Assembly (NCBI GenBank): GCA_050331235.1
Contig: JBHJHA010000058.1
Span: 1-64,000, forward strand
DNA: 64,000 bases
Reading direction: 5' to 3'
DNA from: Leptolyngbyaceae cyanobacterium
GTDB lineage: Bacteria; Cyanobacteriota; Cyanobacteriia; Phormidesmidales; Phormidesmidaceae
The notes below the pieces were generated by a model. It saw only the letters and a program-made list of their open reading frames with translations, ran no database searches and was not told the DNA's origin. The position numbers and the translations under genes are program-made. Below, piece after piece: positions 30,335 through 48,931 of this stretch (positions are counted from its first letter, which is position 1; the number at the start of each line of letters is the position of its first letter).

Positions 30335-31654
30335 TTGGTCATCCATCATCTAGCAACCCTTCAGGAACAACGGAAATACCTCCGATGGTTGATTCAACTT
30401 CTTGGCTGCTTGAGCTGCGGTCTGGCGATCGCCTGTCAGTCCGACGTGTCCTCCAATGCGACCGATCCGACTCAGCAAGTCACCATCCTAGGTACTTTAA
30501 CGGGGAACGGAGAAGATAAGCTGATGGCAGCGATCGCACCATTTACGGAAGCGACCGGTATTGAGGTGACTTACGAAGGTACCGATGCCTTTGCCACGCT
30601 GATTGCCGTGCGGGTTGACTCAGGCAATGCCCCCGATATTGCCCTCTTTCCGCAACCGGGGCTGATGCTCGAGTTTGCCGAGCGGGGAGACTTAGTCCCC
30701 CAAAACCGTGCCGCCATAGCCGATGCCTATGCCCCCTACTGGCTCGACTTAGCCAGTGTTGGGGCAGATCTATATGGTGTCTGGATGCGAGCTGATGTCA
30801 AAAGCCTAGTTTGGTATAACCCTCAAGCCTTTGAGGCCGCCGGCTACACCGTGCCAACCACGTGGGATGAACTGCAAACCCTCAGTGACCAGATGGTTCA
30901 AGACGGCAACACACCCTGGTGTCTGGGCATGGAAAGTGGCGATGCTACGGGCTGGGTCGGCACTGATTGGCTCGAGGAAATATTGCTGCGTCAAGCTGGA
31001 CCGGACCTCTACGATCAATGGATTGCCCACCAAATTCCATTTACTCATCCGGCAGTTGAGCAAGCCTTAGAAACCTTTGGAGCGATCGCCCGCAATCCTG
31101 AGCAGGTCCGTGGCGGCCCGACGGGTGTCATCGGCACACCGTTTGGCGATTCCCCTAATGCTTTATTCAGCGAGCCGCCGGGATGCTACTTACATCGCCA
31201 GGCCAGCTTTATCAGTGACTTTTTGCCTAACGGTCTCGAACCCGGAAAAACAGTCGATGTATTTGGGCTACCACCGATGACGGCCACCGCCGAACGTCCC
31301 ATTTTAGTGGGAGGGATTGTCTATGCTCAGTTCAACAATACCTCCGCCGCGATCGCCCTCATGGAGCACCTCGCCTCGGCTCAGGCCCATGCAATCTGGG
31401 CTGGTGAAGGCTACATTACCCCCCACCAACAGGTCACTTTAGAAGCTTATCCCGACGACTTAACTCGAGATCAGGCGGCAATATTGCAACAGGCCGACAT
31501 CATTCGGTTTGACGGTTCTGACCTGATGCCCGGTGCTGTAGGCACCGGCACCCTTTGGACGGGCATGGTGGACTATGTCGGGGGTAAAGAGGCCTCTACC
31601 GTACTGAATGCGATCGAGCAAAGCTGGTCCGCCTCTCCTGTGGAAAACCAATGA
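30335..31654 (+). CDS. Carbohydrate ABC transporter substrate-binding lipoprotein (alpha-glucoside type)
   Basis: Lipobox-like LAIAC, PDIALFPQPG, KSLVWY, ATGWVGTDW, FDGSDLMPGAVG; start uncertain. Confidence 0.85.
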   Translation: MVIHHLATLQEQRKYLRWLIQLLGCLSCGLAIACQSDVSSNATDPTQQVTILGTLTGNGEDKLMAAIAPFTEATGIEVTYEGTDAFATLIAVRVDSGNAPDIALFPQPGLMLEFAERGDLVPQNRAAIADAYAPYWLDLASVGADLYGVWMRADVKSLVWYNPQAFEAAGYTVPTTWDELQTLSDQMVQDGNTPWCLGMESGDATGWVGTDWLEEILLRQAGPDLYDQWIAHQIPFTHPAVEQALETFGAIARNPEQVRGGPTGVIGTPFGDSPNALFSEPPGCYLHRQASFISDFLPNGLEPGKTVDVFGLPPMTATAERPILVGGIVYAQFNNTSAAIALMEHLASAQAHAIWAGEGYITPHQQVTLEAYPDDLTRDQAAILQQADIIRFDGSDLMPGAVGTGTLWTGMVDYVGGKEASTVLNAIEQSWSASPVENQ

Positions 31655-31667
31655 TCAATGCGGGTCT
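31629..31667. repeat. 39-bp direct repeat, left copy (partner at 47694-47732)
   Basis: CCGCC(T/C)CTCCTGTGGAAAACCAATGATCAATGCGGGTCT, 1 mismatch between copies. Confidence 0.92.
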
Positions 31668-31751
31668 CAAACCAGCCTAGCGAAGGATGCTGTATGGGGT
31701 TTTTTGCATAACCCCCCGAAAAGGTATATTCCACAATGAGATGCCTAAGTC

Positions 31752-32317
31752 TCAATCTGCCGATTGCACGACCTTCGTCCCATCCAGATAGCGATACACA
31801 CTAGCCTTCGAGAGTTTGTAATCCTGCATCAAGGTTTTGATGAGCACTCCCTGCGCTCGCTTCTGTCGCAGCTCCAAACACTGTTGCTCAGTCAAATGCT
31901 TATCTCGACCCAGCCTAACGCCACGGGCTTTAGCATTTTGGATGCCATCCATTTGGCGTTCAGCCCGGATTTGGTTTCAAACTGGGCAATGGCTCCCAGC
32001 ATATTGAAGAGTAGCCGTCCGGTCGCATCGCCGGTGTGAATGTTCTGGTCCAGCACTTGGAGATTGACCTGCTTTTGTTCCAACTGCTCAGCTAACTGAC
32101 AGAGATGAAGCGTGGAGCGTGCCAGCCGGTCTAAGCGCGTCACCACCAATGTATCGCCTTCCCTAATGTATTCGAGGCAGGCTTTCAGCCGAGGTCGCTT
32201 ATGGGAAGAGCCACTCCGCTTCTCCTGAAAGATCTTGTCACAATGCTTCAGTTTATCGAGTTGCACATCGAGACTTTGTCCTACAGAGCTGACCCGCGCA
32301 TAGCCGACGACAGCCAT
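31752..32317 (-). pseudogene. tnpR: Serine resolvase of Tn A, frameshifted near 31972
   Basis: VGYARVSS, VTRLDRLAR, AQFET; continues in another frame as (E)IRAERQMDGI..HTH SKASVYRY. Confidence 0.88.
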
Positions 32318-32319
32318 GA

Positions 32320-32430
32320 TCGCCCCCAAAGGTTTCAATAAGCCTAAGACTTTGTGAGAATCAAGTAATGAGACATGATTTGAGACACTAGTATGAGTAT
32401 GTCTCAAAAGGTCTACTTTCTGAGACTATC
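32320..32430. other. Putative res site of Tn A
   Basis: Repeated TGAGAC/GTCTCA inverted half-sites between the divergent tnpR and tnpA. Confidence 0.55.
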
Positions 32431-32468
32431 GTAAACGACGAAACGTCCCAGCGCGATCCTCCATTTCT

Positions 32469-35400
32469 ATGGCAAAGCAGATAGCAGCCCCGACTCAAAA
32501 ACGTCTGCACATCCTAGGGGATGACGAGATCGCCGACCCCTATGGACTCCCTCACTTCACCTCGGAGGAGCAAAGCGAGTACTTCGCACTATCACTGAGG
32601 GAAGCTATGGCCATCGAGCAGCTGCATAGCAGCTGCATAGCATTAAATCTCGGCTCTATGCCATTCTGCAACTGGGCTACTTCAAGGCCCGCCATCTCTT
32701 TTTTGTCTTCAGCTTTGAAAGGGTGGCAGCGGATGCCCACTATCTCCAGGAGCGCTACTTCCCCACGTTCCAGCTAACTGCGTTTGAGCCGACGAAGGTC
32801 ACGCGCCTGAAGCACCAGCGCATCATTCTTGAACTCTGCCATTACCGTATCGGCGCTGAGCCAGAGCGTCAAGCACTGAGACGCAAAGCCGAACAGGCCG
32901 CGAGGGTTTGCGGAAAACCCATCTACATCTTTCGCGAGCTGATGCATTACCTCGAAGAGGAGCGTATTGTTGCGCCTGGATATAGCTTGATGCAGGATAT
33001 CGTGGGTCAGGCCATTGCCGATGAGCAAGACCGATTGGTTGCCGTGATGCAACGGCGTCTGACACCGTCTGAGACAAAAGCCTTAAATCGGCTGATAGAA
33101 GACGTACCCGGACTGTACGAAATCACCCAGCTGAAACGAGAACCCAAAGATTTCAGCCTCGGTGAGGTGAAGCGTGAGATTCGTCGCAGCGAGCAGATTC
33201 AGTCGCTCTATCACCTGGCCCAGACGCTGTTGCCTGCGCTGAAGATTTCTGGTGAAAGTATGAAGTACTATGCGTCACTGGTGACCTACTACTCCGTCTT
33301 CCGGCTCAAGCAGTTGGCTCAGGGCACGGTACATGTGTATCTTCTGTGCTTTGTTTACCACCGCTACCAACGGGCACACGACAATCTCATCAACAGCCTG
33401 ATATATAACGTCAGACGGTATGTTGAAGCGAGCAAGGTAGCGGCTAAAGAACAGGTCTATGAGTACCGGATTGAGGGTAACCAAAACCTACAAAAAGCCG
33501 GTCAGATTCTCAAGCTGTTTACGGACGACACCATTGTCGAAACTACCCCCTTTCAAGAAGTTCAGACAAAAGCCTTTGAGATCCTAGAGCGTCAGAAGTT
33601 GACCGTCCTCGCTGAGCACATTGCCACCCAAGCTAGCTTCGATGAGACGGCTTTTCAGTGGGAGTACATAGACACTTTGGCACGGCAGTTCAAGTGCAAT
33701 CTACGGCCTATCCTACAAGCGATTGAGTTTGCCAGCGCCTCGGGGCATGTCCCTCTGCTAAAAGCGCTTCAGTTCTTGAAAGCCGCAGCTCAAAAAGGAC
33801 GATCCCTGAATCAATATCGGCCAGACTCGTTTCCCACCCAGTTCATTCCAGACGCAACCAAACGCTATCTCTACGCCTCGGCGGAAGCCGGTGGTCATCT
33901 ACTACCAGACCGCTACGAGTTCCTGGCCTACCGCCTGCTGCGCAACGGTTTGGAATCGGGCGACATTTTCTGTCGCGACAGCGTTCGCTTCCGCAGTTTT
34001 GAGGACGACCTGCTCAGCGAGCAGCAGTGGCAAGCCAAGACGGAGCTGATTACAGTAACCGGTCTGACAATACTCAAGCAACCGATTCAAGAGCATTTGG
34101 CTGCGCTCGAACAGCAGCTAGAATCACGGCTGGCTCAGGTGAATCAGCGCCTGAATGCTGGTGAGAATCCACATTTTGAGACCAAAAAGCGAGGTTCAAC
34201 CATCCGGTGGACGCTTCAGTCACCAGGCATTCGCGAGTCGATCAACCATCCGATGTTCAGTGCGCTGAAGCACGTCACCTCAGCAGCGTTCTGCATTTCG
34301 TCAATCAGCACTGTCAGTTTAGCGAGGCCTTTGAACACCACTTGGGACGTTACGTCAAACAGAAATCAGAGGACAGCGTGCTGATCGCCTGCCTGATTGC
34401 CTGGGGCACCAATATGGGACTGGGCCGTATGGCCGAGACCTTGGATATCAACTATCACGCCCTGGCAAACGCATCTGACAACTTTCTCCGTCCCGAGACG
34501 CTGAGAAAGGCCAACGATCGCGTCAGCAATGCCATGGCTGAGCTACCCATTTTTCGGCACTACGATATTGGCGGAGCCCTTCACTCCAGCAGTGACGGGC
34601 AAAAGTTCGAAAGCCAGATTCAGACCATCAATGCTCGTCATTCGCCCAAGTATTTTGGCTTGAAAAAGGGCATCGTTTCCTACACCCTGCTGGCCAACCA
34701 TGTGCCGGTCAATGCCAGAATCATCGGCGCGAATGAGCACGAGAGCCATTATGTCTTTGACCTGCTGTTCAACAACACTACAGAGGTACAGCCGACGATT
34801 CATTCCACGGATACCCATGGCACCAATGAGGTCAATTTTGCCATCTTGCACCTATTCGGCTATCAGTTCGCCCCGCGCTACCGGGATATTCATGACAAGG
34901 TCAGTCATGCGCTCTATGGATTCCAACACCCCAGTCAATATGAGGATGTCCTGCTCAAGCCGATTCGCAAGATCAATACCCCACTCATCATGGACGAGTG
35001 GGACAACATCCAGCGCATCATGGTGTCATTGGCCCTGAAGACGACCACTCAAAGCATCATTGTCAGCAAGCTGAGTGCCTATGCTCGCAGAAATAAGACC
35101 CGGCGGGCGTTGTGGGAGTACGACAACATCCTCAAAAGCCTCTATCTTCTGGACTATGTCGATTCGGTTCCCCTGCGTCAGAATGTCCAACGAGCCCTGA
35201 ACCGGGGCGAAAGCTATCATCAATTGCGCCGAGCCGTTTCCTACGCCAACTTCGGCAAGTTTCGCTTTAAAACTGAATACGAGCAACAGATATGGGGGGA
35301 TTGCGCTCGCCTGCTGACTAACTGCATCATCTATTACAACGCCTCTATCCTGTCCGACCTGATGACTCACAGCGATAGCTGTGGTGACGTGGCCAGGGTA

Positions 35401-35535
35401 GCCCTACTCAGCCAGGTGTCGCCAGTCGCGTGGCAGCACATCAATTTTTATGGTCGCTATGAGTTCAATAAGCAGCCTGAACCCATCGATATAGAAGCGA
35501 TTCTTCAACAGTTGATACAGCTGAGGATTGAGTAA
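32469..35535 (+). pseudogene. tnpA: Tn3-family transposase of Tn A, with two frameshifts
   Basis: ILQLGYFKA restored by removing an 11-bp duplication (32620-32641); 1-nt loss near 34277; SSDGQKF, STDTHG, LNRGESYH motifs. Confidence 0.92.
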
Positions 35536-35591
35536 GACTCACTCGTCTGATTGTGGAATATACCTTTTCGAGGGGTTATGCAAAAAACCCC

Positions 35592-36289
35592 TAGATGAGT
35601 TCAAGCGGCATAAAAACGCCCTGCTACTCATTGATGAGTGGACCATTATCGGAGCCACCACATTTCGATTCAACGAGCATCTCAAGCCGTTTATTGATGA
35701 TGTGTGCTCGACTATCACCACGCTATCCAGCCGGGGGCTACAGGCAGATCAAGCCGTATGGTTAATTGCCCCCCATTGCCGACTAGATTTCCTTGAAAAG
35801 TCAGCTAAGGCTCTGAAGCTTTGCAAGCTCTGTTTAGTCGCTGCTAACCCTGAGCGACCGTTCGATGTGGATGGCAATCGCATTGGATTTGATAGTGAGT
35901 TATTCGACCAAGTAAAGAACAACTGGAAAGACCTAACAGCGCCCCCAAAAGGTATTGATTCGCTCGACTCAGAACGGATTGCCTTTATCAATGGTCAATG
36001 GTTACCGCTGGGTTCCATCGAAGTTACGGTAACCAACTCGGAACCTGAGGGCGTAACCACCGTAACCAACTGCCACAGCAGCGATACAGCGCTTATCTAT
36101 ACCCGCTTATCGGAGGTGTGTAACTTGACGGTAACCGAGGTTACAGGGGCTTTATCTGCCCTTTCTCAGGGCCTAACTAAGACTCACATTATCAAAAACA
36201 TTTGGGGCTATACCGGGCGTAATTATGCCGACTATGCCGAACGATTTGACCAATTACAGCAACTTACTGAAGTGAATCAAGATGTCTAA
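35592..36289 (+). pseudogene. 5'-truncated P-loop ATPase-like gene with a C-terminal HTH-like region
   Basis: Walker-B-like LLLIDEW just after the Tn A IR; the ORF-track start lies inside the transposon end, so the true 5' end is lost. Confidence 0.5.
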
Positions 36290-39645: not shown

Positions 39646-39685
39646 TAAAGATATAAAGGTATTAGATGTTTATGCGTTTAAGTTA
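39646..39685. repeat. Tandem 8-bp array (parS-like)
   Basis: TAAAGATA TAAAGGTA TTAGATGT TTATGCGT TTAAGTTA; related arrays at 40810 and 42040. Confidence 0.6.
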
Positions 39686-39716
39686 TAAGAGCCCTGAAGA
39701 GGTAAGCCCGCAGGGC

Positions 39717-40793
39717 TCAAGGGGCAGATTCTTCGTTGCCCTCGTGCGTTTGCAGATCGCGCACGGCAGCGTCTAGCTCCATCTCCAATTGTTCGGCGCT
39801 AGGCAGGCTGGTTTGCAGGTCGGGGGGCAGCTCGTCACGTAGCTTATAGGTCGAGACGCCGATCGGATTTTCCATCATGTCGAGGGCAAACTCGACGATG
39901 GTGCGCTTCTTCGACCGACAGAGCACAATGCCGATTGTGGGGTCGTCCCGCTCACCACACAGCAGATAGTTCACCGCCTTCACGTAGAAGTTCATTTTGC
40001 CTGCATATTCTGGCTTGAATTCGGTGGTCTTGAGGTCAATGACCACGTAGCGGTGGAGTTTGATGTGGTAGAACAGCAAATCAATAAAGAACTCATCGCC
40101 TTCGAGCTCCAGCCGGTACTGGCTGCCGACGAAGGCAAAGCCGACCCCGAGTTCCAACAAAAAGTCGCGAATGCGATCCACTAGGGCACGTTCGAGGTCG
40201 CGTTCCTGAGCGGCCTTGTCCAATGTGAGGAACTCAAAGTTGTAAGGGTCTTTGAGCAGTTGCCGTTGGAGGTCTGACTGTTCGGGCGGCAGGGTCTTCT
40301 CAAAGTTGGTGACTGCCCCTCCCTGCCGCCCGAACAGATGAGTTTCGATCTGCATCACCAGAATGTCTCGGCTCCAGCCATTTTCTAGAGCTTGCTGGCC
40401 ATACCAGAGCCGTTCTTCGGTGCTCTTGAGCTTTTCGAGTAGGGCGATGTTGTGCCGCCAGGGTAATTGTCCAACGCAGCGTTGGACAATTAGTTCATCG
40501 GGCCAGGCTTCGGCAAAGGCCCGCATATACATTAGATTCGAGCGAGAGAATCCCTTGATATCGGGAAACTCCCGTTTCAAATCCTGTGCTAGTCGTTGGA
40601 TGACCTTGGCGCCCCAATTTTCCTGGGCCTGCCGCTGCAAGATTTCGCGCCCAATTTGCCAATAGAGTTGAATCAGCTCTTGGTTGACAGCCAACGCTGC
40701 GCGTACTTGGGCCGACCGAATCCGTTGTTTCAGCCCATCTAACAGCGCGAAGTAATTTTCCTCTTCAGGGAATAGGGGACTATTGGTAGACAA
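39717..40793 (-). CDS. DUF1016 / YhcG PDDEXK nuclease-domain protein (cargo copy)
   Basis: AVNQELIQLYWQIG, GFSRSNL, LPWRHN, KDPYNFEFL, LELGVGFAFVGSQ, IDLLFYH, GKMNFY. Confidence 0.92.
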   Translation of the reverse strand: MSTNSPLFPEEENYFALLDGLKQRIRSAQVRAALAVNQELIQLYWQIGREILQRQAQENWGAKVIQRLAQDLKREFPDIKGFSRSNLMYMRAFAEAWPDELIVQRCVGQLPWRHNIALLEKLKSTEERLWYGQQALENGWSRDILVMQIETHLFGRQGGAVTNFEKTLPPEQSDLQRQLLKDPYNFEFLTLDKAAQERDLERALVDRIRDFLLELGVGFAFVGSQYRLELEGDEFFIDLLFYHIKLHRYVVIDLKTTEFKPEYAGKMNFYVKAVNYLLCGERDDPTIGIVLCRSKKRTIVEFALDMMENPIGVSTYKLRDELPPDLQTSLPSAEQLEMELDAAVRDLQTHEGNEESAP

Positions 40794-40849
40794 GGCCCAA
40801 CTCCTTGGCTAAAGGTATTAGACGTTTATATATTTAAGGTATATAGAAA

Positions 40850-41263
40850 TCAAAGATTTAAGGCTTCCTTGAGGTCCTCAATGTTGTGAATTGCTTCCCA
40901 GTCCAGGTCTTGGGCCTTGAGGAGATCGATGGCTGCGCCAATGAGGTGTTGTGGATAGACCCGCTCGTTGGGGGGCACAGCATATTCATTGTTGTCACGC
41001 ACCTGTTGGGCAGTGTCCTGTAGCCAGCGCTGCTGCTTCCGTTCAATCTTGATATTCACTGTTGTCAAGGTTTCTTTGCGACGGCGCTTGGCCTTCGTCT
41101 TAGGGGTAGCTTTCGTTGCGTCGGTGGGCGCTGCTGCCTCGGTCGGTGCTGGCGGTGGCGGCGTGGCTTCCTCCGCGACGGCGGTCTCCGTCTGCGCCGC
41201 TGGCTGTGAGACCCCCCCGAACGAACTCAAACTCAGATTTCCCATCCGTTTCTTCGTAGTCAT
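40850..41263 (-). CDS. Putative ParA partner / centromere-binding protein
   Basis: ATGA-coupled to parA; disordered N-terminus and a beta-helix-helix-like C-terminus (TTVNIKIER..). Confidence 0.6.
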   Translation of the reverse strand: MTTKKRMGNLSLSSFGGVSQPAAQTETAVAEEATPPPPAPTEAAAPTDATKATPKTKAKRRRKETLTTVNIKIERKQQRWLQDTAQQVRDNNEYAVPPNERVYPQHLIGAAIDLLKAQDLDWEAIHNIEDLKEALNL

Positions 41264-41979
41264 TGCAGTCCCCATACTTTCAAACATTCTTTGGCGAGTG
41301 AGCGATAGGCCGTCGCCCCGGAAGATTTGGCGTCGTAGTCAGCGACGGGCACCTGCTGAGCGATAGATTCAGCGATCGCAATGTTTTCGGGAATGAACGA
41401 ATGCAGCAAGCGATAGTCGAGATCTACAGAGCCGGCGATCAGCAGGTCATCGGCTTCCCGTGACAACACCAAGCGACTTTTGTACCGCGATCGCAAAACT
41501 TCGATGGGTACGTCGGGTCGCTCACCCCGGATCAGCCCAATCGCTTCCGAGATGCCTTTCAAGCTGGCAGGTTCACATAAGGTCGGCATAATGACGCGAT
41601 CGGCATTCAATACGGATTGTACTGATGGCAGCCCTAAGCTAGGTGGGCAGTCCATCAGACACACATCATAACCTCTTAGACCTTAAATGGATGGAGCGAT
41701 TAAATCTTTATCAGCTGATAATCTAAACATCCCAATGTCACCAGCGATGAGATGCAGCTTCTCGACGGAAGTGGTTAAGGGTTCACCGCTACCATCTAGC
41801 CAATCTAAAATGGTTGGCTCTGCACCATCGAGCCCCAACGAGAAGGAGATCGTTCGCTGCCCATCTAGATCAATAAGGACGGTTTCGTATCCAGCCCGCG
41901 CAATTTCAGCACCCAAGTTGAGGGCGGTTGTGCTTTTAGAGGTGCCACCTTTCAAATTCCAAACAGCGACTTTCAGCAT
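41260..41979 (-). pseudogene. parA: ParA-family ATPase with an internal in-frame TAA (41683-41685)
   Basis: NLKGGTSKSTT, IDLDGQ, DCPPSLG; the two ORF-track pieces are in the same frame (APSI*GLRGYDVCLMDCPP). Confidence 0.88.
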
Positions 41980-42275
41980 GGTGGTTCATTGTGAGGACAT
42001 AATGACTTTATGTCATTAACCTTCGTTCTGAATAACAGTTAAAGGTCTAATATGTTTATCTGATTAAATGTGCCAGTTGACGAAAATCGCTGGACTGAAT
42101 CTGGATTATTTGCTGATGAAAGGAACTGTGCCAGTTGGCTGAAGCCCTTGAAACCTCGTGACCAGTAAAAACGGGGTCAAAAAGCGCGATCGCCCCGGTT
42201 TGCCAAGCTTTCCTCCATATTTAACGGAGGGAGTAGTTGCCTTGTGTCGCAGCGCTTCCAGAAAGGGTTAACGCT

Positions 42276-43028: not shown

Positions 43029-44237
43029 TCATTTAGGAATCATCTGTAGCTGGGCATTAATCTCACCAAGTTCAGCCTCCTCTGGGTCAAAGAATCCCCC
43101 AACCCATTCGAGCATCTCCTCATGTTCAGGATGCTCCACGTCTTGGATGGTCTCTAGGAACTCCTGATAGCCCCAAACCCCACCACAGTCTTCCGGTGGA
43201 CAGGCACGCTTGGCTTTGATGCAAACGGGATAGCTAACATCAGGCTCCGCTGGGAGAACCTTTTCAACCAGGACGTCATGCTCCCAGGAGTCTCCGAAGT
43301 CATACAGATAAGAGAACTTAAACTTTTCTCCTGGTACGAGGCGACTCAATTTGACCGCCTGTTCGTCACGTAAGTCCATCTCATCAAAGCCTAAGTCAGG
43401 CATGGGGACGCCATACTCAACGCCTTGAACATGGAAGGAATGGAGGTGTGAATTTGTCCACCCCATTGAGAGCTGAACCACCCAGTGCAACTGCCCTAGG
43501 GTGATATCACTGGGCACCTGTACCCGCCGCCAAATCGGTGGCCGGATGTCCTTGAGGGTGATTTTGAGTTGGTAGATTGATGGAGCTTTCTTTCGAGGAG
43601 CCATTTTAGAGCGCGGGGGATAAAAATCGGGGTGAGTTTCGCGGTGACGTTTCACAATCTCAGTAACTGTCGTCTTGCTGAGCTTCAAATGATGGGCAAC
43701 GGTTCGATAGGCCGTTCCCGCCTCCACCATCTGTATCACTTTTGGGGCCAGCGGGTCTGACTTAATCCGTTGGCCTGGTCGGCGGCCCAAAAGCTTTCCT
43801 CTAGCCTTCGCGGCGGCCAACCCTGAGCGGACTCGTTCGCTGACTAAATCGCGTTCAAACTCTGCCAGCGCTGCCATCAACTGGGCAATCAGACGGCCTT
43901 GCGGGGTCGTTAAGTCGAACTGTAGTCCGGTTTGGGCAATCAAGGAGACTTGCCAACTGTGTAAAGCTTGCAACGTTTGAATCAGGTCTAGAGTGCTGCG
44001 GCCCCATCGAGTCAGTTCGGTCACGAGGACGGCATCAATCTTCCGAGCTTGCGCCAAGGCCATCACCTGCTCTCGTTCAACTCGGGATGACCTTGTCCCT
44101 GGGGCGGTCTCCTTCCACACGCCAACCACCTGGAAATTGGCTTGGGTAGCGTAGTGCAATAAGTCCTGCTCTTGTCGGTCACAGGACTGATCCATGGTTG
44201 AGACCCGGCAATAAATGGCAATCCTTTTTTGTACCAA
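43029..44237 (-). CDS. Serine resolvase fused to a pRiA4b ORF-3-like domain
   Basis: AIYCRVST, ELTRWGRS, AEFERD; then IYQLKITL..PPIWRR..SHLHSF..YDFGDSWEH..CPPEDCGG. Confidence 0.88.
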   Translation of the reverse strand: MVQKRIAIYCRVSTMDQSCDRQEQDLLHYATQANFQVVGVWKETAPGTRSSRVEREQVMALAQARKIDAVLVTELTRWGRSTLDLIQTLQALHSWQVSLIAQTGLQFDLTTPQGRLIAQLMAALAEFERDLVSERVRSGLAAAKARGKLLGRRPGQRIKSDPLAPKVIQMVEAGTAYRTVAHHLKLSKTTVTEIVKRHRETHPDFYPPRSKMAPRKKAPSIYQLKITLKDIRPPIWRRVQVPSDITLGQLHWVVQLSMGWTNSHLHSFHVQGVEYGVPMPDLGFDEMDLRDEQAVKLSRLVPGEKFKFSYLYDFGDSWEHDVLVEKVLPAEPDVSYPVCIKAKRACPPEDCGGVWGYQEFLETIQDVEHPEHEEMLEWVGGFFDPEEAELGEINAQLQMIPK

Positions 44238-44292
44238 TTAAACCCTTCTGACTTTAGAGGGCTGAAACCCGCGATGTGTCGTACCGTTTTGG

Positions 44293-44324
44293 TGTACCAA
44301 TCAGACTATACTCTGACTGGTACA
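44293..44324. other. Putative res subsite of Tn B
   Basis: TGTACCAATCAGA-CTATAC-TCTGACTGGTACA palindrome between the divergent resolvase and tnpA. Confidence 0.55.
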
Positions 44325-44354
44325 AATTATGATGGGATTAGCTACCTCAGTCGC

Positions 44355-47300
44355 ATGCCTGTTCGTTTTCTGACGGAAGAGCAACAACAGCGCTATGGGT
44401 GCTATCTAGACACACCAACTGAGCTTCAGCTGGACCGATACTTTCATCTCGATGACGTAGACCGACAACTGATAGCTGCACGCCGGGGCGACCACAATCG
44501 GTTGGGGTTTGCCGTGCAGTTGGGAACTGTGCGTTTCTTGGGGACCTTCCTGGCCAATCCAATTGAGGTGCCGCCCAACGTCGTTGACTATTTAGCGCAG
44601 CAGCTAGAGGTCGCTAGTACGAGTAGCCTGCCAACTTATCTGGAGCGAGAGGAAACCCGCTGGGGACACACGGCGCTGATCAAGCGTCACTATGGCTACC
44701 AGGATTTTAGCGCTCAGCCAGCACACTGGCGATTTATTCGTTGGCTCTATGCTCGCGCCTGGGTAGGAACAGAAGGCCCCAGCGTTCTCTTTGATATTGC
44801 GACAACGCAGCTGCTGGAGCAGAAAATTTTACTCCCTGGCGTCAGCGTCTTGGAACGGTTGGTAGCGACTGTGAGGGAGCGGGTGTCACAGCGGGTATGG
44901 AAGGTCTTGTCACGTCTGCCGACAGCTGAGCAATGCCAGCGCCTGGACGCCATTCTCAAAGTGGATGAGGATGCTAGGCAAACGGTCCTTGATCAGCTCA
45001 GGCGCTCACCGACGCGCCATAGCGCTCCAGCGCTGGTGGCGGCACTTCATCGGTTAAAGCGGATACGGGCCATTGGCGTCAGCCATCTGGTGATGCCAAT
45101 GGTTCCGCCCAGTCGGTTGAAGGCGTTGTCACGAGCTGCATTCACCTCCCGCGCCCAGACTATTCAGCGGATGCCGAAAGCTCGGCGGATAGCGACGTTG
45201 TTAGCCTTTGCCCGTGATGTCGAAGCGACGGCCCAGGATGATGCGCTGACGGTTCTAGAGCTACTCACAAAAGAATTGTTGTCCAAATCAGCGAGTCAAG
45301 GAAGAAAGAAACGGCTGCGGACACTCAAAGATTTAGATGCGGCGGCGCTGACGTTGAGTACCGCCTGCGCCATTCTCATAGCGCCAGAGCAGGAAGTTAC
45401 TCAGCTGCGCGAGACAATCTTTGCTCAGGTTCCCCCAGAACAACTAGCAGCAGCGGTCGAGCCGGTGGAATCCATTGCCCGCCCACCAGATGACCAATAT
45501 TACCCTGAGATTTTGAGTCGCTGGCGCACCGTGCGGTTATTCCTGCCGACGCTGTTGAATACGATTGACTTTCAGGCAACCCAGGCAGGGCAGGACATTC
45601 TAGCGGCGGTAGCCTTTCTCAAATCGATTGAGGGCAAGCGTAAGCCTGTCATGACGGAGGCTCCTTTATCGATTGTCAGCAAAGGCTGGTGGCGTTGGGT
45701 ATGTCCAGCTCCAGGCGAAATTGATCGCCGTGCCTACACTTTCTGTGTGCTGGAACAGTTGATGAATGGGCTGCGCTGCCGGGACTTGTACGTGTCTCCG
45801 AGTGTGCAGTGGAGCAACCCACAGGAAAAATTGATTCAGGGCCGCGAGTGGGTGGCGGTGCGCAGCCAGGTCTGTCGCACGTTGAATCTTGCGCCGAAGC
45901 CTGATGAGAAATTAACGCAGCTAAAGCAGCAGCTCAATGATGCTTACCACCGGACGGCTCAGAATCTGCCCAACAATGATGCTGTACAAATTGTTGAGCA
46001 AGAGAACGGGCGACCAACCCTGACAATTAGCCCGCTAGAGAAGCTAGAAGAGTCTGAAAATTTGCGATCGCTCAGGGCGAAGGTGACGCCCCTGCTGCCT
46101 CGGGTAGATCTCCCGGAAGTACTGCTAGAGACTCACGAAAAAACAGGCTTTCTCGATGCTTTCTCTCATGCTCATGAGGAAGGTGCTCGCGCTGATAACC
46201 TCACCACTAGCCTCTGCGCTGTCCTGGTGGCGATGGCCTGTAACATTGGGCTCAGACCGTTGCAGCGTAAGGATACGCCTGCGTTAACGAAGCATCGTTT
46301 GGCTTGGGTGAAGCAGCACTACATTCGAGCTGAAACACTCGTTGAATCGAATGCTTGTTTGGTGAATGCACAGAAAAATGTTCCCATTGTTCAGGCTTGG
46401 GGTGGCGGTGAGGTCGCTTCTGCCGATGGTTTAAGGTTTGTCGTGCCAGTGAAAACATTAAATGCTGGCCCTAATCGCAAGTATTTCAGCAGCGCGGGGT
46501 ATTACCTACTACAACTTTGTCTCAGATTTGTTTGCTGGGTTTCACGGCCTAGTGGTGACCGGGACGCTGAGAGATTCGTTGGTCGTGCTGGTCGGCTTGC
46601 TGGAGCAGCGGACAGGGCTGAGGCCGCGCGAACTGATGACGGATACGGCAGGTTACAGCGATATCGTCTTTGGTCTGTTCTGGTTACTGGGCTATCAGTT
46701 CAGTCCGCGCCTGGCCGACACTGGTGAGGCCCGCTTCTGGCGACTCGACCCAAAGGCTGACTATGGTGTACTCGATGGGATAGCTCATCAGAAGGTGAAA
46801 GTGCATCTCATTGAAAACTCGTGGGACGACATGCTACGGGTAGCTGGGTCGCTCAAGTTCGGTAGGGTCAGCGCTTTGGAAATTATGCGCGTGCTACAGA
46901 AGGGCGGGAAGCCGTCTACGTTGGGCAAGGCCATTGGTGAGCTGGGCCGGGTGGCGAAGACATTGTATTTGTTGCACTACATCGATGATGAGGATTATCG
47001 GCGACGCATTCTTATCCAGCTCAATCGAGGGGAAGGGCGGCACAGTTTGGCCAGGGCGATCTGTCATGGCAACAAAGGGGAGATCCGGCAGCGCTATCGT
47101 GAGGGGCAGGAGGATCAACTCAATGCGCTGGGGCTGGTCACCAATGCTGTCATTCTCTGGAATACTCTGTACATGGATAGAGCCCTTGATCACCTCCGTG
47201 CTCAGGGCTTAGAGATCGATCCTGACGACATCGCTCGGTTGTCGCCGCTGGGACATATCCATATCAATATGCTCGGTCGTTATTACTTCGAGCTGGCTGA

Positions 47301-47367
47301 GGCACTCAAGGAGGGTGGGTTTAGGCCGCTGCGGAACCCTGATGACCCAAATGAGCCATTTTACTAG
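44355..47367 (+). pseudogene. tnpA: Tn3-family transposase of Tn B, frameshifted near 46490
   Basis: MPVRFL, NRLGFAVQLGTVRFLG, ASADGLRF; then RGITYYNF, MTDTAG, QLNRGEGRH in another frame. Confidence 0.92.
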
Positions 47368-47436
47368 GCTCGAAGCTAAGCGTGGCAACGGATGTAGCCT
47401 TAGCGCAGGTTTCTGTTCCGTTACTACTCAAACCCC

Positions 47437-47682
47437 TATCCTGTCCGACCTGATGACTCACAGCGATAGCTGTGGTGACGTGGCCAGGGTAGCCCTACTC
47501 AGCCAGGTGTCGCCAGTCGCGTGGCAGCACATCAATTTTTATGGTCGCTATGAGTTCAATAAGCAGCCTGAAACCATCGATATAGAAGCGATTCTTCAAC
47601 AGTTGATACAGCTGAGGATTGAGTAAGACTCACTCGTCTGATTGTGGAATATACCTTTTCGAGGGGTTATGCAAAAAACCCC
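47437..47682 (+). mobile_element. Second copy of the Tn A right end (246 bp)
   Basis: Near-identical to 35346-35591 (one substitution seen). Confidence 0.95.
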
Positions 47683-47693
47683 TGTATCGGATC

Positions 47694-47732
47694 CCGCCCC
47701 TCCTGTGGAAAACCAATGATCAATGCGGGTCT
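47694..47732. repeat. 39-bp direct repeat, right copy (partner at 31629-31667)
   Basis: Contains the stop codon of the DUF1016 gene. Confidence 0.92.
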
Positions 47733-48784
47733 TCTTCTTCACCCGGACTGGCCGCCATCTCTAGGGGAACAGCTTTGAGTTCTTTTTCTAACCGTTCGAC
47801 CGACGGGAGCTGCGTTTCTAAGGGAGCCGGGATTGTCCGATGCGTGGAAATCCCAATAGGCTTTTGCAAATCCCGTAGGGCATATTCAGCGATCGTTTTA
47901 TTTTTGGCTCGGCACAGAATTAAGCCAATCGTCGGGCCATCATCGGGATGCCGGAGCAAGTCGTCGATCGCCGATACGTAAAAATTCATGCGACCAGAAT
48001 ATTCCGGCTGAAAGTCTCCCATCTTTAAATCAATGACGACAAAGCACCGCAGCTTCAGGTGATAAAATAACAGATCTACATAAAAGTCTTCGCCACTTAC
48101 TTCTAAATGGTGCTGACTCCCTACGAAGGCAAAGCCAACACCCAGCTCCAACAAAAAGTCGCGAATGTGATCAACCAGCGCCTGCTGCACCTCTCGTTCC
48201 TGAGCATCTGCCGAGATCGTTAAAAAATCAAACGTGTAGGAATTTTTGACAAGATCCCTAGCCAAATCAGACTGGAGCTCAGGGAGCGTTTGCTCAAAAT
48301 TAGTAATCGCGTCACTTTTGTGTCGACTGTAAAGCTGCTGGTCAATCTGAGTCAGAAGGATATTGCGGCTCCAGCCGTGGGCGATCGCCTGCTGGGCGTA
48401 CCACAGTCTGGCTTCAGGGTCCTTGATCGCCTCCATCAAGCGAACATTATGCCCCCAGGGCAGGTTAGCCATCACCTCGTGCAACACCGCTTCATCCGGA
48501 TAGGTTTCGGCAAAGGCCCGCATGTAGTGCAGATTGCGCGGAGAAAAACCTTTCATGCCGGGAAACTCGCCGCGTAGGTCCTGGGCAATGCGCTCAATGA
48601 CCTTACTGCCCCAACCCTGTGCTGTCTGACGTTGTAAAATTGCTTGCCCAATCTGCCAGTAAAGCAGGACCAGCTCCCGATTGACCGCTAAAGCCGACCG
48701 AACTTGTGCCCGCCGAATATGATCTTTTAGCTGCGTAATCAGATGCTCATATTCAGGGGTCTGGGAAGGCAGCAAAGCAGACAT
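47720..48784 (-). CDS. DUF1016 / YhcG PDDEXK nuclease-domain protein (chromosomal copy)
   Basis: AVNRELVLLYWQIG, GFSPRNL, LPWGHN, LELGVGFAFVGSQ, VDLLFYH. Confidence 0.92.
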   Translation of the reverse strand: MSALLPSQTPEYEHLITQLKDHIRRAQVRSALAVNRELVLLYWQIGQAILQRQTAQGWGSKVIERIAQDLRGEFPGMKGFSPRNLHYMRAFAETYPDEAVLHEVMANLPWGHNVRLMEAIKDPEARLWYAQQAIAHGWSRNILLTQIDQQLYSRHKSDAITNFEQTLPELQSDLARDLVKNSYTFDFLTISADAQEREVQQALVDHIRDFLLELGVGFAFVGSQHHLEVSGEDFYVDLLFYHLKLRCFVVIDLKMGDFQPEYSGRMNFYVSAIDDLLRHPDDGPTIGLILCRAKNKTIAEYALRDLQKPIGISTHRTIPAPLETQLPSVERLEKELKAVPLEMAASPGEEEDPH

Positions 48785-48806: not shown

Positions 48807-48876
48807 GAATCTGCAACAGGCTGTTGCAAGATTCACATCGTACCGCCTCGAGATAAATGTGCAACGGGCTGTTGCA
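48807..48876. promoter_or_regulatory. Two TGCAAC-N5-GTTGCA palindromes upstream of the DUF1016 gene
   Basis: Cores at 48812-48828 and 48860-48876. Confidence 0.6.
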
Positions 48877-48931
48877 GCAATTGCAAATGGCTATACACCT
48901 ATCAAAATTTAGTATAAATGAATTATCTAGC

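Follow-up and report, generated by a model that had tools for sequence, protein, structure and literature searches.

Most of the genes sampled from the YhcG/DUF1016 family carry a DNA palindrome at one fixed spot within their coding sequence, and the two arms of this palindrome change together. Because its bases change in step with residues of the predicted DNA-reading surface of the encoded protein, each protein likely docks on its own gene. The best explanation, which we consider probable on the basis of sequence comparisons, is that each protein uses a predicted ParB-type domain to bind a site inside the gene that encodes it, and likely keeps its own nuclease in check. One stretch of DNA would then both encode a binding domain and serve as the likely target that this domain reads. 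The family is a widespread group of nucleases in bacteria and archaea, is present in E. coli K-12 and is a candidate defence system.

A perfect palindrome inside a YhcG/DUF1016 gene

The window (the whole 64,000-nt stretch analyzed here, from a Leptolyngbyaceae cyanobacterium) contains both DUF1016 genes of its genome (Table 1), and the database matches at the protein level bear cyanobacterial names. The first, P0001, matches PF17761 (DUF1016_N, E 3e-47) followed by PF06250 (YhcG_C, E 6e-64), as well as the PADLOC profile PDC-S02 (E 9e-155). The initial annotation had reported a perfect 29-base palindrome inside the coding sequence, encoding IVQRCVGQL directly ahead of a conserved PWxHN motif, and both points are confirmed: the sequence TAATTGTCCAACGC-A-GCGTTGGACAATTA lies at 40464-40492 within ORF 39717-40793, immediately before PWRHN. 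It codes for residues 101-110, which lie between predicted DNA-contact helices one and two, and is the longest perfect inverted repeat of the whole window.

Base composition predicts about 0.0002 such repeats per window (with a 1-nt spacer). The host genome nevertheless holds 54 perfect repeats with arms of at least 14, 7 of them inside ORFs of at least 150 aa, so that this null is too lenient and rarity alone says little. Measured against synonymous shuffles, the window gene has 10/10 core positions paired vs 5.6 (p=0.002, the floor with 500 shuffles). An assembly artefact is unlikely, since a contig from a second run of the same study (X2 record 8) covers the palindrome with zero differences. 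No other copy of the 23-bp core was found within 3 mismatches across the 4.8-Mb genome, in which three family-type sites pass the strict threshold. Dispersed palindromic repeats, such as REP and the Rickettsia palindromic elements, have many near-identical copies genome-wide or within unrelated genes; no such copies were found, and we do not place the palindrome in this class. Many long, loop-less perfect palindromes centred on GCGATCGC, an octamer that we take to be HIP1, also occur on many contigs of this genome.

Table 1. Features of the two DUF1016 genes in the window and of their palindromes (strand "." for palindromes).
Feature	Position	Strand	Remarks
YhcG/DUF1016 gene P0001	39717..40793	minus	358 aa; PADLOC candidate PDC-S02
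PD-(D/E)XK nuclease domain	39801..40262	minus	NucS/EndoMS-like fold
Predicted ParB/Noc-like helical DNA-binding domain	40323..40628	minus	residues 56-157
Arg142-Asp143	40365..40370	minus	third predicted contact helix begins here; linked to bases +2, +3 (weak link once the tree is controlled for)
Arg113 to Ile116	40446..40457	minus	matching ParB G201 to R204 in the alignment; vary together with bases +2 to +4
Perfect 14-1-14 palindrome, predicted self-binding site	40464..40492	.	centre 40478, first base of codon 106
Ser85	40539..40541	minus	aligned to ParB R173; non-Arg goes with non-C at +7; G here, as observed
Paralog P0002	47720..48829	minus	likely ATG at 48784; Arg85, Gly113, Val116
Decayed in-gene palindrome of P0002	48461..48489	.	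3/10 pairs
Palindrome TGCAACAG-G-CTGTTGCA	48807..48833	.	centre 36 nt upstream of likely ATG of P0002
Second palindrome, same type	48855..48881	.	48 nt further upstream (84 nt from likely ATG)

Conservation of the symmetry across the family

We gathered 405 loci from the same phylum, GTDB genomes, viral contigs and metagenomes, which yielded 325 unique genes. Of these, 319 could be aligned on the conserved Trp, and 273 remained after filtering to below 90% identity. With the first base of codon 106 as the centre, positions 2-11 of these 273 non-redundant genes form on average 8.16 of 10 pairs, vs 4.51 in synonymous shuffles. At least 8/10 pairs are present at this register in 219 genes, and the next best centre within the scanned part of the gene averages 3.85 pairs. 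A site above thresholds between the first contact helix and the Trp is absent from 9/273 genes, and from 9/55 genes of the held-out set described below.

Changes on both sides of the centre were counted in an unselected sample of every third gene plus the window gene (92 rows), in which 84.6% of cells are paired and 32-42% in slid controls; there are 275 both-side changes between the arms vs 98 in shuffles. Free synonymous third positions are complementary in 1333/1523 cases vs 576 expected, and it is therefore the symmetry rather than the peptide that is conserved. Mismatches at pairs 2-9 comprise 29 G-T and 39 A-C, and because there is no G-U bias, the symmetry resides in double-stranded DNA. 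These data support the proposal, made from the window alone, that DNA-level symmetry is maintained inside the gene; the codon-aligned scoring against synonymous shuffles and the search for compensatory arm changes suggested at that time both return an excess across DUF1016 homologs.

One subfamily of 55 genes (L233-L312 and others) has a second in-gene palindrome within the preceding helix, 108-111 nt upstream of the main site, and in 5 of these genes the upstream site is intact and the main site decayed. The long linkers of L209, L231, L373, L386, L521 and L527 consist of two or three in-frame palindromic units.

A predicted ParB-type domain fused to a nuclease

In the structure model of P0001, residues 11-58 form one long predicted helix, and residue 85, residue 113 and the region of residue 142 lie at the starts of helices 84-96, 112-121 and 142-150. 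Family-level structural matches of the DNA-binding domain are Spo0J (Z 7.3, rmsd 2.8, 90 residues), ParB-parS, KorB-operator, Noc and SopB. In Foldseek, ParB, Noc and SopB occupy the first listed rows with E-values that are not significant, and a domain-only VIA search places FlhA above ParB (Z 6.2 vs 5.4). The Pfam model HTH_ParB (PF17762) is matched at E up to 1 by 26/111 family members (best 4e-6). Profile alignment with hhalign to a 19-row ParB profile gives a significant match with a probability of 54% (E 1e-4), and a non-significant 2.9% with only 4 ParB rows. A PDB sequence search returned no match for P0001, and none relevant with the profile of the DNA-binding domain. Taken together, these model-based comparisons moderately support a ParB-type helix-turn-helix DNA-binding domain in the N-terminal half of DUF1016 proteins. 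Among the Pfam matches of P0001 there is no CTP-binding ParB N-terminal domain.

In the hhalign alignment, the residue that follows GKS corresponds to residue 85 and the G of GH to residue 113, with ParB numbers matched to these motifs through the published list G170, K171, S172, R173, G201 and R204 (PMC7383237). ParB touches parS with three helices; the outer guanine is bonded by R173, and an inner base lies opposite position 201 (PMC7383237). The three helices of P0001 named above are predicted to correspond to these contact helices.

The C-terminal domain of P0001 has NucS/EndoMS (2vld) as its best structural match (Z 10.3, rmsd 2.5, 108 residues; covering residues 196-319). Its PD-(D/E)XK motif is intact (E197, D238, D253, K255), and E197, D238, D/E253, K255 and Y270 are kept in 259/259 full-length relatives.

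Co-variation of protein residues and palindrome bases

All protein columns outside the palindrome were scored against each base pair in 236 genes with at least 7 pairs, with 37 genes set aside. The top co-varying residues are 85, 113, 143, 142, 116, 111, 89 and 88, and residue 85 with base 7 gives the strongest signal over all these columns (z 10.4). Arg85 accompanies G at -7 and C at +7, with 223/230 genes in agreement (counts 99, 5, 2, 124), Ser113 accompanies T at +3 (56, 6, 0, 151) and Arg/Lys116 accompanies G at +4 (37, 6, 2, 163).

On a tree built without residues 78-150, residue 85 and base 7 undergo 43 and 41 changes, and the 22 independent pairs comprise 19.6 with concordant and 0 with opposite changes (p 2e-6); the corresponding values are p 2e-4 for Ser113/+3 and p 0.016 for Arg/Lys116/+4. 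When the tree is built from the domain's own DNA with the tested codons removed, p is 1e-3 (85), 5e-4 (113) and 0.06 (116), and a protein tree of the DNA-binding domain gives p 0.06, 0.03 and 0.25, respectively. Once the tree is taken into account, the residue-base pairs for 143, 89, 88 and 113R/G/F fall short of significance, as do most of the remaining pairs; the outcome for residues 142, 89 and 113Y/F comes from the domain-tree analysis. When whole clusters are left out, bases 2-7 are predicted correctly in 76-89% of cases vs 28-62% for the majority base.

As base +7 is the second base of codon 108 and also alters residue 108, natural controls are needed. Thirty-seven genes lack the canonical site, and in 28 of them the site is displaced, frame-shifted by one base or spacer-less; the Arg85 and Ser113 rules hold in 26/28 and 28/28 of these (a hand tally in which several genes are kin). 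A frame-shifted clade of 6 genes, which is monophyletic, has C at +3 where residue 113 is Thr and T where it is Ser.

A further 55 new genes were held out for an alignment-based test, after 12 partial, 7 duplicate and 4 training rows had been dropped from 78. A site is present in 46/55, and the three rules hold in 45/46 (Arg85), 39/46 and 46/46, with T at +3 in only 9/16 of the Ser113 proteins.

For P0001, left out of training, the half-site predicted from its contact residues is GCGTTGGACAA, and the best match in the genome is the palindrome at 40464-40492. No further cognate sites of P0001 were found elsewhere in the genome, so that a genome-wide regulon or a multi-site centromere is unsupported.

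The paralog P0002

The initial annotation had described the equivalent segment of the paralog as not palindromic, which is borne out at 48461-48489 (3/10 pairs, p=0.47 vs synonymous shuffles) and requires one correction: the segment is a copy that has decayed, and at the 5' end of P0002 lie two palindromes of the type predicted for this protein. The site predicted from its contact residues is CTGTTGCACAA, of which the best two matches in the 4.8-Mb genome are 48807-48833 (first) and 48855-48881 (second), a match that is less specific than it appears because the predicted site is near a common family type. An operator would be expected at such a 5' position. Upstream of P0002 there is no match to the sigma-70 promoter consensus, and a 158-aa SAM methyltransferase gene of unclear substrate is located there.

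Genomic neighbourhood and sites outside the main register

The region of the DUF1016 genes in the window also contains Tn3 remnants, a resolvase and a split parA. The two Tn3-family remnants (31629-35592 and 43029-47732) match each other over an end of 251 nt (99%) and a repeat of 39 nt. In the second, the transposase is in two frames and adjoins a resolvase-pRiA4b ORF3 fusion. The split parA of the window locus lies 0.5 kb upstream of P0001 and occupies 41260-41979 as two ORFs of 98 and 134 aa; the gene after it (145 aa) has no Pfam match. Three AT-rich direct repeats (39654-39687, 40810-40843 and 42040-42073), spaced by 1156 and 1230 nt, enclose the DUF1016 gene and the parA cassette in the manner of modules. 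They may resemble dif-type sites, and no other copy within 10 mismatches was found in the genome. Co-occurrence of DUF1016 with restriction and mobile-element domains has been described (PMC3424549).

Across the family, 26 flanking non-coding copies of the site are isolated 27-nt units. Compared with the residues of the neighbouring gene they score 14 vs 13 permuted and 17.5 vs 14.3 (p 0.09), and both rules hold in only 12/26, no better than permutation; such copies could be relics, or could serve other paralogs. Of the five sites of E. coli K-12 yhcG, three are in-frame, one follows directly on the stop codon and one is 7 kb distant; Ser113 agrees with all five and the Lys85 rule with 2/5, in a protein with Arg in place of the conserved Trp. 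A family-type palindrome just after gltD (L562:645), 7 kb upstream of yhcG, matches the first in-frame copy of yhcG.

In-frame palindromes were also seen in two other families (hand counts, no null): 27/30 RhuM loci (PF13310; L434-L463) have a position-fixed, sequence-variable one (e.g. VRKFRT, VANFAT, VKDYLT), and 16/21 ORF6N loci (PF10543; L464-L484) have one at a similar spot (e.g. RSQFVT, VANCDH, ITNCDR), with the palindrome of L474 located upstream of the gene.

Proposed mechanism and alternatives

The ParB-type domain of a YhcG/DUF1016 protein would dock, likely as a putative dimer, on the 27-29 bp palindrome inside its own gene, and occupancy of the site would likely hold down expression of its own nuclease. 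Direct binding of the protein to the palindrome is, judging from the sequences, very probable; negative autoregulation, by roadblock or operator occupancy, we hold to be reasonably probable. Template switching likely helps to copy a new mutation onto the other arm, altering both arms together, and a matching residue change would then be selected, an order of events that we infer. Site and reader lie about 20-110 bases apart in one gene and therefore move together. Of the mechanisms listed in the initial annotation, a self-binding operator is favoured by the residue-base rules, and a hairpin substrate for the nuclease received no support from the tests run; the breakpoints bearing on an exchangeable cassette are given below. 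More tentatively, YhcG/DUF1016 genes may encode self-addressed nucleases: the sequence coding for the binding domain would at the same time be its target, reader and site would diversify together, and the family would record a natural protein-DNA recognition code. Occupancy of the site would keep the nuclease off and loss of the DNA would turn it on, possibly a general design of DNA-binding genes of mobile elements (RhuM, ORF6N); this broader proposal we regard as possible rather than probable.

The protein could also bind a site that serves mobility or shuffling, with nicking at or near palindromes and genes or specificity modules exchanged between them. Extra family-type sites amount to 105 in 90/273 loci, where shuffles yield 1 and 83 kb of ParB loci yield 0. 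Among them are the second in-gene sites (55 genes), which enclose the first contact helix together with the main site, as well as non-cognate sites in the flanks. An enrichment of DUF1016 genes beside programmed inversions has been reported (odds ratio 17.4; PMC9881135), the genes are present on 540 plasmid records, and 15/35 pairwise breakpoints lie between -30 and +59 nt from the centre, though these pairs are non-independent and confounded by the variable segment itself. However, the sites 108-111 nt upstream follow the residues of their own gene (48 and 45.5 of 55, p 2e-4), as operators would, a rule-keeping that gene conversion from the main site could equally explain. Moreover, a symmetric site is directionless and cutting the own gene would be costly. 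Centre-base flips, considered as a sign of inversion, are C/G in 11/22 combinations, no excess over base frequencies. We consider a role in mobility unlikely.

Next, the site might act as a DNA antitoxin: binding to the own gene would park the nuclease, and loss or degradation of the DNA (plasmid loss, phage attack) would free it to cut other DNA. This would fit the catalytic residues kept without exception, the status of the family as PADLOC candidate PDC-S02, its presence on plasmids and beside restriction systems, and the lack of a DNA methyltransferase adjoining 39717-40793 among the 21 proteins scanned. Yet one to three sites per gene hold only few protein molecules, and some genes are without a detectable site, and an antitoxin role appears distinctly unlikely.

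A chance inverted repeat might have been kept perfect by template switching, which conserves short perfect repeats in bacteria (PMC5941160), with the residue links reflecting intra-protein contacts or shared ancestry; the host genome is rich in long palindromes, and a change of base +7 changes the amino acid at codon 108. Under this explanation it is difficult to see why the rules persist where the palindrome encodes other residues or is in another frame, why non-Arg85 accompanies both Gly108 and Arg108, which have only the base in common, why base 7 is explained 0.70 by residue 85 vs 0.36 and 0.13 by its neighbours, and why the residue-base co-changes recur on trees. It is in our view highly improbable. 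That the selected object is an mRNA hairpin acting on translation or stability is the least credible: the mRNA over 40464-40492 would fold into a 13-bp stem (z -4.5), but G-T mismatches are not above A-C mismatches, some genes are wholly without spacer, and an RNA stem does not explain base-specific links to the ParB-type surface.

Comparison with known systems

In the main texts searched, for the most part outside subscription journals, we found no description of a palindrome or recognition code of YhcG/DUF1016, and no known substrate. With the preferred reading, binding of each protein to its own gene, the predicted target becomes readable from each member's own gene, with single-residue, single-base switches, and an uncharacterised nuclease family gains a testable predicted target. 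The likeness of DUF1016 to NucS/EndoMS concerns the C-terminal domain only (residues 196-319). EndoMS is known for mismatch recognition and has another N-terminal domain.

Perfect coding palindromes of up to 284 bp occur in many genes of Nematomorpha mitochondria (PMC6649704), and perfect repeats maintained by template switching are mostly non-coding (PMC5941160); in their accessible parts, neither text links the repeats to a cognate reader protein, as we propose for DUF1016. RptR (PMC12255303), a promoter repressor, is unrelated and was set aside. Binding of a ParB to a palindrome in its own gene is already known: by EMSA, ParBm of the Thermus thermophilus megaplasmid binds the palindrome parSm inside its own coding sequence (PMC4409726). 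parSm differs in being one 14-bp, nuclease-free partition centromere, and the accessible sections of that report do not describe co-variation of site and protein across a family (PMC4409726).

By analogy, palindrome and reader would work like ParB-parS. As in ParB-parS and Noc-NBS (Jalal et al., 2020; PMC7383237), a helical domain with three (predicted) contact helices is paired with a palindromic site, and residues 85 and 113 of DUF1016 align to R173 and 201 and co-vary with the outer and inner bases. In contrast to the ParB-parS described there, DUF1016 is without a CTPase domain and has a fused PD-(D/E)XK nuclease, and its site, about 27 bp long around a centre of 1 nt, differs between genes and encodes part of the binding domain, whereas parS is conserved family-wide. 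Membership in ParB-parS was thus rejected, because the system lacks the CTPase domain and the parS consensus and has a nuclease; the palindrome at 40464-40492 differs from the 16-bp parS consensus quoted in PMC4409726, with a 1-nt centre and longer arms. The hundreds of natural residue-base combinations would turn the two-state ParB/Noc specificity switch into a code.

The C proteins of type II restriction-modification systems are separate small proteins with operators upstream of their own genes. Like the proposed DUF1016 readers, they are helix-turn-helix autoregulators with diversified palindromic operators, and they restrain a nuclease (PMC2632904). In DUF1016, in contrast, the predicted reader, the nuclease and the putative site are one gene.
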